Positions 5,667 to 56,365 of a stretch of DNA of 64,000 nucleotides are shown piece by piece. A program made the position numbers and the translations under genes. How positions within the stretch are numbered: the first letter of the stretch is position 1; each line of letters opens with the position of its first letter. The notes beneath the pieces are model-generated. The model saw nothing but the letters and a program-made list of their open reading frames with translations. It made no database searches and was not told the origin of the DNA. Source of the DNA: Thermodesulfovibrionales bacterium (GTDB taxonomy: Bacteria; Nitrospirota; Thermodesulfovibrionia; Thermodesulfovibrionales; UBA6898); assembly GCA_044450345.1 (NCBI GenBank), contig JBIOIY010000001.1, positions 64,001 through 128,000 on the forward strand, read 5' to 3'.

Positions 5667-7007
5667 TCACGCGCTTATGTCCGCACCGCAGATTATAAGA
5701 CTCGGGGCGCCTATATTTCCGAAGAACCTGAGGTCGTCTCCGACAGCCTCTATCTTGCCGAACAATTCGAGGATATTGCCCGAGAGGACAGCCTCTTTCA
5801 CAGGGAATGCGAGTTCTCCGCTTTCGATCCACAGACCGGTTACTCCAACGGAGAAGTCACCCGAAATGGGATTTGCCGTATGGACGCCCATCGCATCGGT
5901 CACATAAAGACCCCTGCCGATCTCGGCAAATAACCTCTCCTTCGGAACGACAGAAGTCCCCGAAACCGGTTCCAGAAAGAGATTCGAAACGCCGACAGAC
6001 GGCAGTGTCGAGAACCCTCCCCTCGCCGCATTCCCCGTTGAAACCGCACGGGCCTTGCGCGCGGTATACGTGTTGTAGAGATACGCCTTCAGGACCCCTT
6101 CATGGATTACAGTCTTCTCCTGCGAGGGGACCCCCTCATCATCCACAGGGCTGCTCCCCAATCTCCCGTTGAGAAGGCCGCTGTCGACCAGGTTTATCCC
6201 GGCGCTGATGACCCTACTGCCGAGCCTGCCCGCTAGGAGAGACTTGCCTTTCTGGACCGCCTCAGCAGAAAGAGACGAAGCAAATATTCCGAGAAATTCG
6301 GCCGTCACGGCGTTGTCTATTATCACATTGCCCTTCGTTCCCGCCATCTTTCTGGAACCCAGCAGCAATGCAGCCCTCCGGGCGGCCCCCATCCCTACAC
6401 CGTCGAATGAAATGTCTTTCAGAAAACAGCCCGCATCATAATCCCAGCCGACCTGACTTTCCCCGTTTTCCTCTGCAATCGCCATAACCTGCGCGCTGCA
6501 GGCAGTGGATTCATAGTACACTTTCACACCTTTGGAGTTCACTATCACCGTCCCGGAAGACGTAAATGAGCCTGAAGCCTTTCTCACCTTCTTGATACGA
6601 CGGTCCGCCCCGTACACAGACCTTTCCATGAGCATGACCGCTTTGATGGCCTCTCCCTCGTCCGTTGCCTGCAACTGCGGGTCCAGGACAGACACTGCAG
6701 CAGGCAGACCGGCCTCCGGAAGATCGAGAAAATTATCGGGATCGGAAAATCGTGCCGCATCGATGGCCTTCGTGATGATGGAATCCCTGTCGCCGGCAGC
6801 AGTCGCATAGGAAAAGCCGAGACGACCGTCCTTGATCACACGGAGTGAATACCCGATGCTCGCTGAAGATTTGAGAGAATCGACCGCCTGTTCCTTGATC
6901 TCGACGGACAGGCTTTTTGAAGACCTCATAAAGACCTCGGCCTGGTCCGCGCCGCTTTTTATCGCTTTCGAGACAACTTCCTCGGCAAAACCACGGTCAA
7001 TCTTCAT
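5667..7007 (-). CDS. TldD/PmbA family protein (PmbA-like)
   Basis: DDEGVP, STGNA, NPISGDFS and C-terminal APSLI; no HExxxH motif. Confidence 0.9.
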   Translation of the reverse strand: MKIDRGFAEEVVSKAIKSGADQAEVFMRSSKSLSVEIKEQAVDSLKSSASIGYSLRVIKDGRLGFSYATAAGDRDSIITKAIDAARFSDPDNFLDLPEAGLPAAVSVLDPQLQATDEGEAIKAVMLMERSVYGADRRIKKVRKASGSFTSSGTVIVNSKGVKVYYESTACSAQVMAIAEENGESQVGWDYDAGCFLKDISFDGVGMGAARRAALLLGSRKMAGTKGNVIIDNAVTAEFLGIFASSLSAEAVQKGKSLLAGRLGSRVISAGINLVDSGLLNGRLGSSPVDDEGVPSQEKTVIHEGVLKAYLYNTYTARKARAVSTGNAARGGFSTLPSVGVSNLFLEPVSGTSVVPKERLFAEIGRGLYVTDAMGVHTANPISGDFSVGVTGLWIESGELAFPVKEAVLSGNILELFGKIEAVGDDLRFFGNIGAPSLIICGADISA

Positions 7008-7368
7008 AATATGACGCTGATGCGTTTTCCGATTCCCATACCGTCACTGCTGCGGTCCGCAGGTTCCCGTTGTTGATCTTCTTCTTCAGCGAGTCGAATA
7101 TCCATTTCGCGATATTCTCCGATGAGGGGTTCTTTTCTGTAAAAGGAAAGACATCGTTCAGGAAGGCGTGGTCCAGAGGCGCAACAATCTCCTGCGCGAT
7201 CTTCTTCAGATCGTGAAAGTCTATCGCAATATCTATCTCGTTCAGCCTTTCGGCCAAAACGCTGATCTGCACCCGCCAATTATGGCCGTGCAGATTTTCG
7301 CACTTGCCTTTATACCCCCGCAGCTGATGCGCGGCAGCAAACCCAACTTCTATGGATAATTCATACAT
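6997..7368 (-). CDS. queD: 6-carboxytetrahydropterin synthase
   Basis: FAAAHQL, CENLHGHNW, LDHAFLN, NPSSENIA and VWES. Confidence 0.95.
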   Translation of the reverse strand: MYELSIEVGFAAAHQLRGYKGKCENLHGHNWRVQISVLAERLNEIDIAIDFHDLKKIAQEIVAPLDHAFLNDVFPFTEKNPSSENIAKWIFDSLKKKINNGNLRTAAVTVWESENASASYYED

Positions 7369-12585: not shown

Positions 12586-14031
12586 ATGCCCAAATATGAC
12601 TTCGACATCGGGATTATAGGCGGCGGCGCCGGCGGCCTGACAGTCGCTGCGGGTGCTTCGCAACTCGGGGCAAGGACACTTTTAATCGAAAAAGAAAGAG
12701 AGCTTGGCGGGGATTGCCTCCATTTCGGCTGCGTGCCGAGCAAAACACTCATAAGGACAGCAAACGTTTATCATATCATGAAAAAAGCGGGGGATTTCGG
12801 CTTGCCGGCGTTCGATGGCAAGCCGGTCAATTTCGGGGATATCGCACAGAGGATCCAGTCGGTCATAGGCGCAATCCAAAGGCATGATTCGAAGGAGAGG
12901 TTCTGCAAACTCGGGGTCCGGGTTGAATTCGGTTACTCTTTTTTTAAAGACGAACATGCCGTAAATCTCAATGGAAAGACTTATTCGGCCAGGACGTGGG
13001 TAATCGCGACAGGGTCAAGCCCTTCCATTCCCGTAATTGACGGTCTGGACAAGATGCCCTATCTTACGAACAGGGAACTTTTTTCTCTTGACACCCTTCC
13101 GGATTCACTTATTATTATCGGCGGTGGCCCTATCGGAATCGAGATGGCCCAGGCATTTTGCCGTCTGGGGAGCCGTGTTTCCGTTATCCAGCGAGGCAGA
13201 CAGGTCCTGAGCAAGGAAGATGCCGACATCTCTGAAGATATCATGAACTACCTGGCCGGTGAAGGGGTGGTCTTCTATCTCAACACCTCGATCATCGCCG
13301 CAAGAGATCTTGGCAGCGAGAGGGAAATAGTTGTCAAGAAAGACGAGGGAACACTAAACCTCAGGGCAAAAGCGGTACTGATCGCCGCGGGAAGAGACGC
13401 GAATCTGCAATGTCTTGGACTGGAGGAGATCGGGATCGAATTTGATAGGAGAAGGCTCAAACTGGACAGAAGACTCAGGACGAGCCACCCGCACATCTAT
13501 GCAGCCGGAGACGTAACCGGCGACTACCAGTTCACACATGCGGCGGGATACGAGGGGGGTGTGGTCCTCGGTAATGCCGTCTTTCATATACCGAAGAAAG
13601 TGGACTACACCTTTTTCCCGTGGTGTACATTCACCGATCCTGAACTCGCCTGCATCGGCATGAACGAAAAAATGGCCGCTGAAGCCGGAATAGAATACAG
13701 CGTTTATGTAGAAAAATTCATAGATAATGACAGGAGCCTCGCAGAAGGCGAAAAAGAGGGTAAGATAAAGATGATCCTGGATATGAAAGAAAGGCTGCTC
13801 GGCGTGCAAATACTCGGCCCGCATGCAGGAGATCTTCTGTCCGAGTGGGTCGCGGTCATGAACGGCGGGGTAAGACTTGCAACGCTCGCATCGTCGGTCC
13901 ATCCATATCCCACACTCGGAGAAATCAATAAAAAAGTTGTGACCGGACTGTTTTCAAAAAAAATATTTTCCGATCGCATGAGGAAGGGCCTTACATTTCT
14001 ATTCAACCTGAAGGGAAGGGCATGCCCTTAA
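12586..14031 (+). CDS. Pyridine nucleotide-disulfide oxidoreductase (MerA/Lpd-like family)
   Basis: GGAGG SD then ATG at 12586; GGGAGG, GGDCLHFGCVPSK, GGGPIG and HPYPT; no NmerA domain and no C-terminal CC pair. Confidence 0.85.
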   Translation: MPKYDFDIGIIGGGAGGLTVAAGASQLGARTLLIEKERELGGDCLHFGCVPSKTLIRTANVYHIMKKAGDFGLPAFDGKPVNFGDIAQRIQSVIGAIQRHDSKERFCKLGVRVEFGYSFFKDEHAVNLNGKTYSARTWVIATGSSPSIPVIDGLDKMPYLTNRELFSLDTLPDSLIIIGGGPIGIEMAQAFCRLGSRVSVIQRGRQVLSKEDADISEDIMNYLAGEGVVFYLNTSIIAARDLGSEREIVVKKDEGTLNLRAKAVLIAAGRDANLQCLGLEEIGIEFDRRRLKLDRRLRTSHPHIYAAGDVTGDYQFTHAAGYEGGVVLGNAVFHIPKKVDYTFFPWCTFTDPELACIGMNEKMAAEAGIEYSVYVEKFIDNDRSLAEGEKEGKIKMILDMKERLLGVQILGPHAGDLLSEWVAVMNGGVRLATLASSVHPYPTLGEINKKVVTGLFSKKIFSDRMRKGLTFLFNLKGRACP

Positions 14032-39346: not shown

Positions 39347-40543
39347 ATGTCTGAACATAACGCCATAAAAACCCCCCAGGGGTTTCTCTTCTCCGTTGCA
39401 GAGGCTGCCGTCAAGAAACCCGGCCGTAAGGACATCGCGCTGATCGTCTCTGAAGTGGACGCGACTATTGCGGGTACCTTTACGACAAATGCGGTAAAGG
39501 CGGCGCCGGTAAGGCTCTGCATGCAAAATATCAAGTCCGGCCGCGGCAGGACGATAGTCGTGAACAGCGGCAACGCCAACGCCTGCACCGGAGCACAGGG
39601 GCTTAAGGATGCCGGGAAGATCGCCTCTCATATTTCGCACTCCCTGGGAGTAAAGCCATCTCTGTCGTATGTCTGCTCCACCGGCGTCATAGGCGTCCCG
39701 CTGCCTATGGAGAGGATCACTCCTGCCCTCGGCATATTGCTGGAGAATGCCGGAGATCATTCTCTCCTCGACGTTGCGAAGGCCATCATGACAACTGATA
39801 CCTTTCCAAAGATAACGTCACAGGAAGTCACCATCGGAGAGAAGACAGGGGTGATCGCAGGGATATGCAAGGGCTCAGGGATGATCCAGCCGCACATGGC
39901 TACGATGCTCTGTTTTATTATCACGGACATCGCGGTTGAACGGAAGGCCCTTCAGGCGCTGTTGAAGGATTCAGTGGGGCGGTCTTTTAACCGTATCACC
40001 ATTGATGGTGATATGTCGACTAACGACACGGTACTTCTGATGGCCAATAGCATGCTCGGTAACAAGCCGATCACTGCGAATTCGAAATGTGTCAGGGCGT
40101 TCAAGGCTGCTCTCGATAAAGTGACTTATGGACTGGCCAGACTCGTAGTCAGGGACGGCGAAGGTGCAACAAAACTGATCGAGGTCACTGTGAAGGGGGC
40201 CGGGAATGAAGCTCACGCCGAAAAAGTCGCATTTGCGGTCGCAAATTCAAATCTCGTAAAAACGGCGATATACGGGAATGACGCTAATTGGGGCAGGATC
40301 ATGTGTGCGGTGGGATATTCAGGAGTACCTTTCCGGGAGGATAAGACAGATATTTTCTTCAACGGGACACAGGTGGTCAGAGGTGGCATCTCTAACAACA
40401 AGGATAAAGAGGCTACCGAGGTTTTGAAGTCGAAAGAGATAGGGATTACGATCGATCTCCATTCAGGCAAGTCCTCTGCAAGCGTCCTCACCTGCGACTT
40501 AACAGAAGATTACATCCGCATCAACGCGGAATACAGGACATAA
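39347..40543 (+). CDS. argJ: Bifunctional ornithine acetyltransferase
   Basis: NSGNANAC, STGVIG, KGSGMIQPHMATML, DGEGATK and NAEYRT. Confidence 0.97.
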   Translation: MSEHNAIKTPQGFLFSVAEAAVKKPGRKDIALIVSEVDATIAGTFTTNAVKAAPVRLCMQNIKSGRGRTIVVNSGNANACTGAQGLKDAGKIASHISHSLGVKPSLSYVCSTGVIGVPLPMERITPALGILLENAGDHSLLDVAKAIMTTDTFPKITSQEVTIGEKTGVIAGICKGSGMIQPHMATMLCFIITDIAVERKALQALLKDSVGRSFNRITIDGDMSTNDTVLLMANSMLGNKPITANSKCVRAFKAALDKVTYGLARLVVRDGEGATKLIEVTVKGAGNEAHAEKVAFAVANSNLVKTAIYGNDANWGRIMCAVGYSGVPFREDKTDIFFNGTQVVRGGISNNKDKEATEVLKSKEIGITIDLHSGKSSASVLTCDLTEDYIRINAEYRT

Positions 40544-40563
40544 TAGGTTTTATCCTGGTGCAT

Positions 40564-40764
40564 GTGGGGCTTTGCCCCACACCCCAGGTACCCTTCTTGC
40601 TTGCTCCAAGAAGCGTACCCGTAAGAAGGTCACCCCGACGAACCTTCCCGGGCGGTTCGCACTGCCGTCCTCGGTAGATTTTAGGAACTCGCCCTTCGGG
40701 CTCAGACAGCCTAAAATCTTTCACCCTGCGGGCGACAGCACTCACCTGGAAGTTTCGAAGGGGG
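40564..40764 (+). repeat. ~200-nt structured intergenic element, copy A
   Basis: Series of nested IRs with an AACTCGCCC-TTCG-GGCTCAGACA core; same architecture as copy B. Strand shows relative orientation only. Confidence 0.7.
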
Positions 40765-40809
40765 TTGATAGACCTAGAGGCATTTTCAAAAAGGTATTGT
40801 ATTAATGGG

Positions 40810-41001
40810 CCCCTTCTAAAATTTAGGTTGGCTGAAGCGTATAAAATTTTCGCATGTTTGAGCCCCGACTTTGGGGCGAGTTCGAAAATTTAGTAAAGCC
40901 GACCGTCACGATAGTGAAATTTTAGCTGGGGTGTGTTCTTTTGCGGCGGTTTTCTGTCGCATCACAGAAAAGCGCCCGGGGTATAAGGGGCAGAGACCCT
41001 T
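40810..41001 (-). repeat. ~190-nt structured intergenic element, copy B (inverted relative to A)
   Basis: Minus strand has an AACTCGCCCC-AAAGTC-GGGGCTCAAACA core, CACCCC...GAAGGGG closing stem and the same order of hairpins. Confidence 0.7.
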
Positions 41002-41021
41002 TCTCAGATGAGGGGCAAGGC

Positions 41022-41789
41022 CTATCGGATGGAAAACGAGTCCAGAATACCGTAAAATGCCGTCACCGCCACTGAATCGGCGGGAAGTTCTACGATGCCT
41101 TTGCCCTGCAGGTCGTATTCGAAGATTTGATGGTCCTGTGGGACAATCCCTGCAACGGTCAGCCCCATCTCCTCCGCGAGTTTCCTGAGATCCTGCCCTT
41201 CGTCACCCGAAACGCGGTTAATGATCAGGGCGTGTTTGGCGACGTCGAGTTCGAGCTCCTTTACCAGTCCGTCTATCCTCTGTGCGGTGCGCACACCTCT
41301 GACCGTCGGGTCGCTGACGATGAGGAGAAGATCGACCTTATGCGTTGTCCGCCTGCTTAAATGCTCCATTCCTGCCTCGTTGTCGATGACCACATATGAA
41401 TATGTTTCGGACAGCTTGTCGGTATATTTTCTGATGATGTTATTTGCCGCGCAGTAACATCCGGGGCCCTCAGGCCTTCCCATGACCATCAGGTCGAACC
41501 CCTTCGCCTCCACAACAGACTGCTGGACCTGATAGTCGAAGAGCTGCTCCATCGCCATGCCGCCCGGCCGGTCGCCGCCGCTACGTATAGCCTGGAGCGA
41601 CTCCTCCCTTAGGCCGCCTATCGTAGCGTGTACATCCACACCCAACGCTTCGTTCAAACAGGAATTGCTGTCTGCATCGACCGCAAGCACGGGTTTTTTC
41701 TTTTTTTCCATAAGATACTTAACGGTCAGAGCGGCAATGCTCGTCTTACCTGTGCCGCCCTTCCCTGCCAGTGCGATTACGTATGCCAT
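41022..41789 (-). CDS. CooC/AcsF-like CO dehydrogenase maturation ATPase
   Basis: GKGGTGKT, DAD, GPGCYC and DNEAGMEHLSR. Confidence 0.9.
   Translation of the reverse strand: MAYVIALAGKGGTGKTSIAALTVKYLMEKKKKPVLAVDADSNSCLNEALGVDVHATIGGLREESLQAIRSGGDRPGGMAMEQLFDYQVQQSVVEAKGFDLMVMGRPEGPGCYCAANNIIRKYTDKLSETYSYVVIDNEAGMEHLSRRTTHKVDLLLIVSDPTVRGVRTAQRIDGLVKELELDVAKHALIINRVSGDEGQDLRKLAEEMGLTVAGIVPQDHQIFEYDLQGKGIVELPADSVAVTAFYGILDSFSIR

Positions 41790-56019: not shown

Positions 56020-56365
<346 letters not shown>

Follow-up and report, generated by a model that had tools for sequence, protein, structure and literature searches.

What is the pair of inverted, hairpin-rich elements that lies between argJ and a convergent gene in the Thermodesulfovibrionales genome GCA_044450345.1? 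The pair was found in a 64,000-nucleotide (nt) stretch of contig JBIOIY010000001.1 (the window; position 1 is its first letter, and the genome is called G000 here) by an earlier reading of the letters alone (the sequence-only reading), which proposed a new structured RNA or a mobile element of single-stranded DNA. The answer that we prefer, with about even confidence, is that copy A (plus strand) and copy B (minus strand) are non-autonomous mobile elements of ~205-215 nt, built around a module that has been selected for the three-dimensional shape of a folded single strand.

Copy A consists, in order on the plus strand, of a GGGGC-TTT-GCCCC hairpin, ACCCC, a TTCTTG..CAAGAA hairpin, AAGAA, CACCCC, a long arm and a terminal GAAGGGG. 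The order of parts in copy B (minus strand) is identical, its second hairpin being TTTTCTG..CAGAAAA. All of these ordered parts, which the sequence-only reading had listed as shared, are present in the sequence, as is the apical AACTCG-stem-CTCARACA motif in both copies; the C-A mismatch that it placed at pair 4 in both can be read directly from the letters of the mid-arm helix, as C.A in CTGCCGTCC/GGGCGACAG (copy A) and in GGTCGGCT/AGCCAACC (copy B). Aligned with the reverse complement of copy B, copy A has a mean column identity of 75%. Each copy folds into one common three-part structure of a small GC hairpin (P1), a second hairpin (P2) and a long arm (P3), with z = -3.58 for copy A (2 of 200 shuffles equally good) and z = -3.42 for copy B (0 of 200). 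The parts are listed below, with limits from a covariance model (R1) that are a few bases wider than the 40564-40764 (A) and 40810-41001 (B) first proposed; both copies were among the eight training sequences of R1, and their matches to it are by construction.

40560..40771, plus strand: copy A, an A-type unit with the 3′ end ...TTTCGAAGGGGG (R1, 195.8 bits, full length 1-214)
40563..40581, plus strand: P1 of copy A, GC-rich hairpin TGTGGGGC-TTT-GCCCCACA (fold; in the family, 6 of 6 P1 pairs, helix 1, are compensatory)
40581-40585, plus strand: unpaired ACCCC after P1 of copy A
40587..40619, plus strand: P2 of copy A, pyrimidine 5′ strand CCCTTCTTG and purine 3′ strand CAAGAAG (fold)
40620..40632, plus strand: linker of copy A, with the mirror strand GTAAGAA (40621-40627) and the pseudoknot strand GGTCA (40628-40632)
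40633..40763, plus strand: P3, long arm of copy A, closed by CCCC (40633-40636) and GGGG (40760-40763); family helices 3-12
40686..40724, plus strand: apical core of copy A (cross-phylum alignment A5), made of AACTC (40686-40690), hairpin GCCC-TTC-GGGC (40691-40701), TCAGACA (40702-40708), helix CCTAAAATCT and bulge TTCAC (40720-40724; TTAAC in most copies)
40772..40799, no strand: centre of the spacer between the two 3′ ends; its sequence is common to two pairs of one sister genome
40800..41005, minus strand: copy B, a B-type unit with the 3′ end ...TTTTAGAAGGGGCCC (R1, 155.0 bits, full length)
40810..40931, minus strand: P3, long arm of copy B, with its apical core at 40855-40882 (plus strand: TGTTTGA ... 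GAGTT)
40945..40977, minus strand: P2 of copy B, GGCGCTTTTCTGT...ACAGAAAACCGCC on the minus strand (fold)
40985..41001, minus strand: P1 of copy B, AAGGGTCTCTGCCCCTT on the minus strand (fold, sequence)

The full spacer between the copies, counted from GGGGCCC to CCCCC, is 42 nt. At 40806, in the 3′ end of copy B, the contigs of all four public DNA runs that we consulted read one extra G/C (GGGGCCCC versus GGGCCCC), which may be a true difference of one base or an assembly error in a homopolymer.

The pair belongs to a family. A BLAST search with copy A found further copies on contigs C68, C25, C3, C4 and C76, and an nhmmer profile of four copies gave 19 matches in the genome at E < 0.001. Eight full-length copies were aligned (alignment A2), and RNAalifold predicted 57 pairs for them, 22 of which are changed on both sides in at least one sequence. 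R1, the model built from this alignment (214 positions, 57 pairs), has 18 matches in its own genome at E up to 1, including the eight training sequences, and finds further carriers among the relatives; a covariance model and a genome search were among the checks that the sequence-only reading had proposed. All the matches in the genome are intergenic, and the copies are only ~72-78% alike (BLAST). In a larger alignment (A3; 60 matches from 42 sources, 57 distinct rows) 91.0% of paired cells are complementary, compared with 73.3 +/- 0.4% after shuffling and no more than 62.2% with the partners displaced, and 50 of the 57 pairs are compensatory, compared with 33.2 +/- 2.5 in shuffles. As A3 was fitted to the model and consists of related rows, these figures count relatives and overstate independent events. 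P2 (family helix 2) is 96.1% paired, with 11 of 12 pairs compensatory. The conserved fold with covarying stems that had been claimed from two copies thereby has strong support, from a signal well above chance across 57 distinct members.

A mutual-information scan of A3 gave two signals beyond the nested helices. The first is a pseudoknot, in which the P2 loop (columns 52-55) pairs with columns 173-176, on the strand directly ahead of the closing CCCC of P3. Pair 52-176 is CG 21 times and UA 19 times, and the four-pair helix is 83.3% paired. In a permutation test the longest complementary run between loop and linker averaged 3.51, versus 2.69 +/- 0.09 when the partners were re-dealt, and none of 2000 re-deals was as high. 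At least eight different pairs of complementary loop and linker words occur, such as CGCC/GGCG, TGCG/CGCA, CGACC/GGTCG, CGGCC/GGCCG and TGACC/GGTCA, so that what defines a pseudoknot, a hairpin loop pairing with a flanking strand, is found here together with covariation. In copy B the linker AAAAGAA-CACA lies directly 3′ of P2 on the minus strand, and the loop TGCG pairs with the linker CGCA. Copy A departs from the family, its own P2 loop pairing imperfectly with GGTCA when read from the letters.

The second signal is a mirror strand, namely the purine linker that follows P2 (columns 165-171), whose letters reflect those of the P2 3′ strand. Read in register, 279 of 319 cells (87%) agree with this, and no shifted register exceeds 62%. 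Column 169 is G with a C-G pair at 46-152 in 35 cases and A with T-A in 10, with one exception; another subfamily has the G shifted to column 167 together with the C-G pair, and there are three rarer informative variants. Most layers are A with U-A, so informative triple cases are few. A helix formed instead between the P2 5′ strand and the purine linker accounts for at most 67% of cells, compared with 87% for the mirror, and fails on the variants in which the G moves. Since the repeat is a mirror and not an inverted one, hairpin formation could not have made it, and a mirror is what base triples need. As judged from covariation, the strand may form a run of base triples on P2.

The tip of the arm reaches well beyond the Nitrospirota. 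A search with an arm-tip pattern returned at least 121 stretches; DNA was retrieved for 80 of the loci, and in it R1 matched 77 times. Records labelled Nitrospirae, Nitrospirota, Nitrospira or Thermodesulfovibrionia mostly match at full length (three end at contig ends), and those from Bacteroidales, Dysgonomonas and Cloacimonadota match at full length with 34-66 bits. Desulfobacterales, Desulfosarcina, Desulfonema and similar records match in the arm only (model positions ~72-206), and one Peptoniphilus record in the arm tip only. In the alignment of 55 arm tips (A5), AACTC, TC-A-ACA and an AAATT/AATTT helix are invariant and the TTAAC bulge is present in nearly all, the invariance of the pattern's own letters being by construction in loci fetched with it; the four pairs adjoining the loop covary. 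Run independently of the pattern on five foreign genomes, R1 gave 4, 15, 9, 15 and 13 matches, and the copies read out share the tip. The core (AACUC / UCARACA loop, UUAAC bulge) thus occurs in Nitrospirota, Desulfobacterota, Bacteroidota, Firmicutes and Cloacimonadota, which bears out the remark, in the sequence-only reading, on AACTCG..CTCARACA cores in other bacterial intergenic repeats.

The core sits in different surroundings in these groups. In the Desulfobacterales it lies within a miniature inverted-repeat transposable element (MITE) with inverted ends GATGAACTCGTAAAAAGTC and a 6-bp target duplication: among 37 elements with both ends and flanks, the direct repeat is perfect in 16 and matches in at least 5 of 6 positions in 20, compared with 0-1 when the boundaries are shifted by 1-3 bases and 2.2% for flanks of different elements. 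Five Desulfobacterales genomes hold 43-115 end words per strand, so that a sizeable part of the DNA between their genes belongs to this MITE superfamily. One interval of 1.6 kb between two such ends was considered as an autonomous parent and rejected, as it consists of two separate 65-bp mini-MITEs around ordinary genes. These mini-MITEs (locus L236, genome G047, contig C274, 573-629 and 2124-2188) are made of the two ends only, and one has an AAGCTT duplication. Because this coreless form also has the duplication, the core is not needed for transposition in the Desulfobacterales. The Dysgonomonas unit is ~257 nt and its copies are 92-97% alike in core-unit alignments, or 82-85% in longer alignments to copy C10, which lies inside 20-nt inverted ends (7 copies aligned). 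These ends recur in the genome and also bound other small elements; all pairs of them lie 235-650 bp apart, and none of these gave an autonomous parent. The pseudoknot is kept in Dysgonomonas, since the P2 loop ATGCC is complementary to the linker GGCAT when the sequence is read. In Peptoniphilus the copies show a hairpin like P1, linkers rich in C and the arm, which is flanked by an A7 and a T7 run, but no clear P2. A genomic island was considered in Peptoniphilus hominis, where three of four copies lie within 15 kb; this stretch holds ordinary and toxin-antitoxin genes, none of them a candidate partner.

How does the family behave at the level of genomes? R1 (E up to 0.01) found 1-38 matches in each of 20 carriers among 41 related genomes, 17 of them among the 24 genomes of the family to which G000 belongs. 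Of 151 genomes sampled evenly across the phylum, 27 had a match, with a concentration in a second family (21 of 27). Most of these genomes are metagenome bins and many are incomplete, so that an element or gene not found need not be absent, and several R1 matches end at contig ends, the contigs breaking inside copies. Comparison of sister species reveals filled and empty sites, as expected of the non-coding multi-copy element that had been proposed. The argJ site holds the pair in G000, a single copy in the orientation of copy A in G006 and a 5′ remnant in G004, and lacks the element in G002 (a 63-nt spacer) and in G001 (unrelated repeats instead). The site between MatE and ClpS carries a pair in G000 and G004, and is empty in G002 (125 nt) and G007 (118 nt). 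The G000 and G004 copies at this site are of different subfamilies, and one G000 copy (C25a) is a chimera with B-type outer parts and an A-type inner arm, which together point to turnover or gene conversion among copies.

Tail-to-tail pairs recur with a fixed composition. All seven that were read join a B-type unit (3′ end ...GGGGCCCC) to an inverted A-type unit (...CGAAGGGG), the arms of the two types being about 65-75% alike. Spacers measure 42-50 nt in six pairs and 78 nt in one, and their sequence is alike in only three of the seven. A and B are therefore not two equal copies, as the sequence-only reading had treated them, but the A-type and the B-type member of a heterotypic pair that recurs. 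In the genome, pairs and solo copies are equally common. In two of the solo A-type copies another small hairpin repeat stands at about the distance of the pair spacer; this repeat, of the GTCATTCCGG...CCGGAATC type, lies ~42-46 nt downstream of solo A-type copies, where B-type partners would stand (L020 ~13855-13900, L021 ~7000-7050, and L025; the window is unaffected).

The copies also show internal insertions and replacements. A 75-nt insert occurs at the same place in the P2 5′ strand of three copies of the genome, 93-100% alike (L020, on G000 contig C25, 13555-13629 and 411-485; L026, on contig C4, ~6783-6856). A diverged second copy of it lies in the arm of the C4 element, and in the genome this sequence is found only inside elements; it may be a mini-element nested in them, or else an expansion segment that marks one subfamily. 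In several copies a palindromic word of 44 nt (GGGCGTATCGC.ATACGCCCC type, with four BLAST hits in the genome) stands in place of the conserved tip of the arm, as in L020 (contig C25, ~570-615 and ~1906-1975) and in the G006 copy downstream of argJ (L052), and the tip is on this account a hot spot for replacement or insertion. At locus L023 (contig C3, ~6041-6906) a 5′ half copy and a full, inverted copy ~560 nt away have between them a short open reading frame (ORF) that is provided with a ribosome-binding site. By its sequence the ORF resembles a small antitoxin-type gene, and the two copies may be a pair split by a later insertion. Imperfect runs of 7-base words (CACGATT/CACGTTT type) fill some spacers beside elements (L068, L022 and L203, in sister genomes and on contig C77).

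The genes around the copies are ordinary. The pair in the window lies between the following two genes, both outside the element.

39347..40543, plus strand: argJ, upstream neighbour (ORF; Pfam ArgJ, E 2.7e-147), its stop codon 17 nt from copy A
41022..41789, minus strand: ParA/MinD-type ATPase gene, convergent downstream neighbour (ORF; Pfam CbiA 9.2e-14, AAA_31 4.9e-08)

A Pfam scan of 24 ORFs neighbouring copies in the genome gave ordinary genes or no match, the former including ArgJ, ABC-F, MatE, Clp ATPase, Leu/Phe transferase, Usp, desulfoferrodoxin, DXS, M24 peptidase, LptD and amidase genes, among others. Of 28 copies examined in crude ORF calls, 25 have both neighbours: 4 are sense and 6 antisense between co-directional genes, 8 lie between convergent and 7 between divergent genes. 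The placement of one copy at the 3′ end of each of two convergent genes, which the sequence-only reading had pointed out, is not a rule and holds at the argJ locus only; elsewhere an equivalent pair lies between divergent genes, and orientation is unbiased. A scan of 40300-41300 gave no terminator-like sites and one weak promoter-like site, outside the element. Elsewhere in the window there is a tmRNA gene (56020-56365, plus strand; Rfam RF00023, 194.4 bits), and in the genome one 4.7-kb stretch recurs at ~90% identity on contigs C7, C57 and C67, which may reflect a strain mixture in the bin or a multi-copy region.

If the module is indeed selected for its shape, the folded part would be the functional one, read as a single strand, either as RNA or as single-stranded DNA exposed in replication or transfer, and its reader would be a putative trans-acting protein. 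The Nitrospirota form would travel on its own, without inverted ends or target duplication, and in the Desulfobacterales and Dysgonomonas forms the module would be cargo inside ordinary cut-and-paste MITEs. That units adjoin each other and other small repeats, in mosaics such as the A/B pair, is seen directly in the sequences.

Several results weigh against this explanation. In the flanks of 31 Nitrospirota copies we found neither inverted ends nor a target duplication, nor any target word in common, and we infer the mobility of the Nitrospirota form from its distribution alone. No transposition event was caught: contigs from the four public DNA runs (four studies) have the same arrangement across 40100-41500, with no excision joint and no variant without a copy, none of them spanning the whole stretch. 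Gene conversion could also explain the subfamily switch, and would inflate covariation, in an alignment whose rows are in any case related. Over all pairs of the family, G.U cells (84) and A.C cells (108) name neither strand. Finally, among Y1, reverse transcriptase, IS110 and TnpB no partner enzyme was found for copy-rich genomes.

The last of these results comes from a search in which only five candidate enzyme families were tested. Y1_Tnp (PF01797; the TnpA of IS200/IS605 and the REP-associated tyrosine transposases, RAYT) was found in 30 of the 41 relatives, of which 14 belong to the 20 carriers and 16 to the 21 non-carriers. Searches of G004 (25 matches, 95% complete), G025 (38 matches, 100% complete), the closed genomes G018 and G030, and Dysgonomonas G043, the genome of the 92-97% alike copies, did not find it. 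RVT_1 was not found in G004 or G025, nor beside the copies of G000. IS110 (PF01548) was not found in G018, G025 and G030, three of the five carriers tested, and G004 does carry it; the TnpB zinc ribbon (PF07282) was found in none of five carriers. Of the co-occurring enzymes suggested by the sequence-only reading, reverse transcriptase and HUH/Y1 transposase do not track the element, nor do IS110 and TnpB. A self-megablast of the genome (assembly 91% complete) gave no multi-copy repeat like an insertion sequence. Queried with copy A and one Peptoniphilus copy, blastn gave no match in plasmid and phage collections; the pattern scan of viral contigs gave one stretch.

The strongest rival, which we regard as possible and clearly less probable than a mobile element, is that the family is a structured non-coding RNA whose transcript is the functional molecule, spread by MITEs being secondary. 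Such an RNA might form an end that resists nucleases, sequester or recruit a protein, or cleave itself as a ribozyme, and the P2 domain may be an H-type pseudoknot on the complementary strand. A pseudoknot and a mirror strand in strict register are typical of compact RNA folds and hard to obtain from a palindrome alone, and across at least four phyla the unpaired motifs are invariant while the stems vary. Many position-specific C.A mismatches would be G.U wobbles on the complementary strand, on which the A-run before P1 of B-type units becomes a GC hairpin followed by a U-run (5 of 6 B-type flanks, by eye). Against these observations, the copies between co-directional genes show no orientation bias (4 sense, 6 antisense); the scan around the pair gave no terminator, and its weak promoter-like site is outside the element. 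The spacers of four of the seven pairs are not conserved, solo copies have no common upstream sequence, and the G.U and A.C counts give no clear strand.

The strand and the medium bear on both of these explanations. Pyrimidine-pyrimidine mismatches (140) are more frequent in the pairs than purine-purine ones (26), and the G.U and A.C mismatches cluster at particular positions, often helix ends. On the strand that was read, the third strand is purine (G.G-C and A.A-T), and the antiparallel motif of G.G-C and A.A-T triples is mainly a DNA motif. The same columns on the complementary strand become U.A-U and C+.G-C, with the third strand as loop 1 of an H-type pseudoknot; loop 1 in the major groove with these triples is the standard RNA geometry, seen in the SAM-II riboswitch and telomerase RNA. 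The mismatch counts decide for neither strand.

A more specific proposal, to which we give slightly less weight still than to a functional transcript in general, is a new class of structured RNA. It would consist of the AACUC/UCARACA tip and UUAAC bulge, joined to the pseudoknot-triplex domain in Nitrospirota and Dysgonomonas, and would have spread horizontally through at least four phyla of mostly anaerobic bacteria, riding on small mobile elements or constituting them. Its module could be a self-cleaving or self-processing ribozyme, or the RNA handle of a putative mobilising protein.

We think it unlikely that the copies are merely decaying relics of palindromic MITEs without function, their covariation having arisen from master copies, subfamilies, hairpin-templated correction or gene conversion. 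This would account for the close Desulfobacterales relatives, which are ordinary MITEs with inverted ends and target duplication, for chimeric copies such as C25a, for subfamilies that differ by genome at orthologous sites, and for the fact that cell counts in A3 and in the pseudoknot are of relatives and not of events. In MITE relics, however, the ends should be conserved, and here they differ between phyla while an asymmetric apical loop is invariant. Hairpin-templated repair could not maintain a pseudoknot and a mirror repeat, and although the copies in the genome are only ~72-78% alike, the wider family alignment A3 is still 91% paired. Least probable of all is a chromosomal DNA signal resembling repetitive extragenic palindromic (REP) sequences or bacterial interspersed mosaic elements, a cruciform or protein site (for gyrase, an IHF-like protein or a recombinase) that would have the inverted A/B pair as its working unit and would serve domain organisation, termination or insulation between genes: strictly intergenic location, unbiased orientation, recurrent inverted pairs at a fixed spacing of ~45 nt and the Peptoniphilus arm set between A7 and T7 like a two-way terminator are in its favour, but what is conserved is unpaired and asymmetric, a pseudoknot requires a single strand, solo copies are no rarer than pairs, and a range of 1-38 copies among close relatives ill fits an essential host signal.

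Small intergenic repeats are usually dismissed as hairpin junk with ends that a transposase recognises, and the present family departs from that view. An asymmetric conserved tip loop, a pseudoknot and a triplex-like strand together carry the signature of selection for three-dimensional shape, one tip stands under different kinds of ends across five phyla, and the known readers of single-strand folds (Y1/HUH, reverse transcriptase, IS110, TnpB) were not found in the carriers with most copies. A functional module may represent either a widespread RNA class missing from Rfam or an undescribed way of moving DNA; a module without function would still be a clear case of covariation-like signals arising in repeats. 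Cultured carriers (Dysgonomonas and Peptoniphilus isolates, with 9 and 4-15 matches to R1) make the module testable.

How does the element compare with known systems? As the sequence-only reading had supposed, no named RNA family was recovered by Rfam cmscan of the element on both strands. With Rfam 15, only the tmRNA passes the gathering score in the whole window; at E up to 10, 40400-41150 gave one chance-level match to DUF2815 in the spacer (17 bits, cut-off 41.2), and 15 loci from other phyla gave nothing on the element at E up to 1. A full-text literature search, at the level of listings, found no description under the motif words GAACTCG and CTCAAACA, under Nitrospirota repeat and RNA terms, or under the Desulfobacterales end words.

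A number of candidates were set aside. Ribozyme classes (hammerhead, twister, pistol, hatchet and HDV-like) have no Rfam match on either strand. Derivatives of IS200/IS605 (PATE, omega-RNA carriers), which should have sub-terminal hairpins at both ends on one strand, were rejected with Y1 as above, PF07282 in 0 of 5 carriers and a local hairpin at the 5′ end only. An IS110/IS1111 bridge or seek RNA, for which a DEDD recombinase gene should lie alongside, was rejected with PF01548 not found in G018, G025 and G030 and housekeeping genes beside the copies of G000. Retroelement RNAs (retron msr/msd, group II intron, non-coding RNA of defence-associated reverse transcriptases) were likewise rejected on the RVT_1 result in G004, in G025 and beside the copies of G000. 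Integron attC sites have an RYYYAAC box 5′ and a GTTRRRY box 3′ of an imperfect palindrome and stand in cassette arrays; the element has the reverse order (GTTRRRY-like GCTAAAT 5′, RYYYAAC-like TTTTAAC 3′), with no cassette arrays. An IHF site, a hammerhead core and a type I toxin ORF (the ATG of copy A is not conserved) were dropped on reading the sequence, as were the Ssn/NTS targets as far as a part of PMC11893778 describes them.

Some of the remaining systems resemble the element in fold. Its hairpin loop pairs with a flanking strand and its homopurine/homopyrimidine third strand may, as judged from covariation, obey the triple rule in one register, as in H-type pseudoknots with major-groove triple helices, such as the SAM-II riboswitch and telomerase RNA, and in the ENE, triple-helix elements of transposon RNAs. 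This is a likeness of fold and not membership: there is no sequence similarity and no gene-specific location like that of a riboswitch. The guide and scaffold RNAs of transposons (HEARO/IscB and TnpB omega RNAs, IS110 bridge RNA) are multi-domain RNAs of ~150-300 nt with pseudoknots, borne on mobile DNA, and HEARO is in Rfam. The element shares their multi-domain build, size class and pseudoknot and is, as they sometimes are, multi-copy; it differs in having no Rfam match and no adjacent nuclease or recombinase ORF.

In the way it works, the element is most like REP/REPIN, BOX or MITE repeats. REP/REPIN sequences are short palindromes of ~20-40 nt that form inverted doublets and are mobilised by RAYT (Y1 HUH) transposases. 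Like them, the family is multi-copy, strictly intergenic, hairpin-forming and patchy among relatives, often as inverted doublets with a short spacer. In contrast to their 20-40-nt palindromes, its unit of ~210 nt comprises three domains and has both a pseudoknot and a conserved loop that is asymmetric; its doublet is heterotypic and not near-identical, and Y1_Tnp does not track it, so that neither its doublets nor the distribution of Y1_Tnp fits a REP/REPIN-RAYT system. MITEs such as Correia/CREE, ERIC and RUP are small non-coding elements that fold as long hairpins. The family is likewise small and non-coding with a long hairpin, and its Desulfobacterales and Dysgonomonas relatives have inverted ends, whereas the window copies and their Nitrospirota kin have neither inverted ends nor a duplication, the apical loop and not the ends is most conserved, and the ends that accompany one core are of at least three kinds, depending on the phylum. 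As judged from the window copies and the 31 Nitrospirota flanks, the Nitrospirota form of the family falls outside the MITEs; the Desulfobacterales and Dysgonomonas forms are of MITE nature, the former with a fixed-length target duplication. BOX elements of Streptococcus pneumoniae are modular boxA-boxB-boxC repeats of ~200 nt, intergenic and strongly structured, with no coding capacity and no known transposase, and confined to one genus. The element is, like BOX, a modular non-coding intergenic repeat of ~200 nt with strong predicted structure and no known transposase; it shows no sequence relation to BOX, for which we know of no described pseudoknot or triplex, and its core spans several phyla. 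The family appears to be an undescribed variety of a familiar kind, the structured intergenic repeat.

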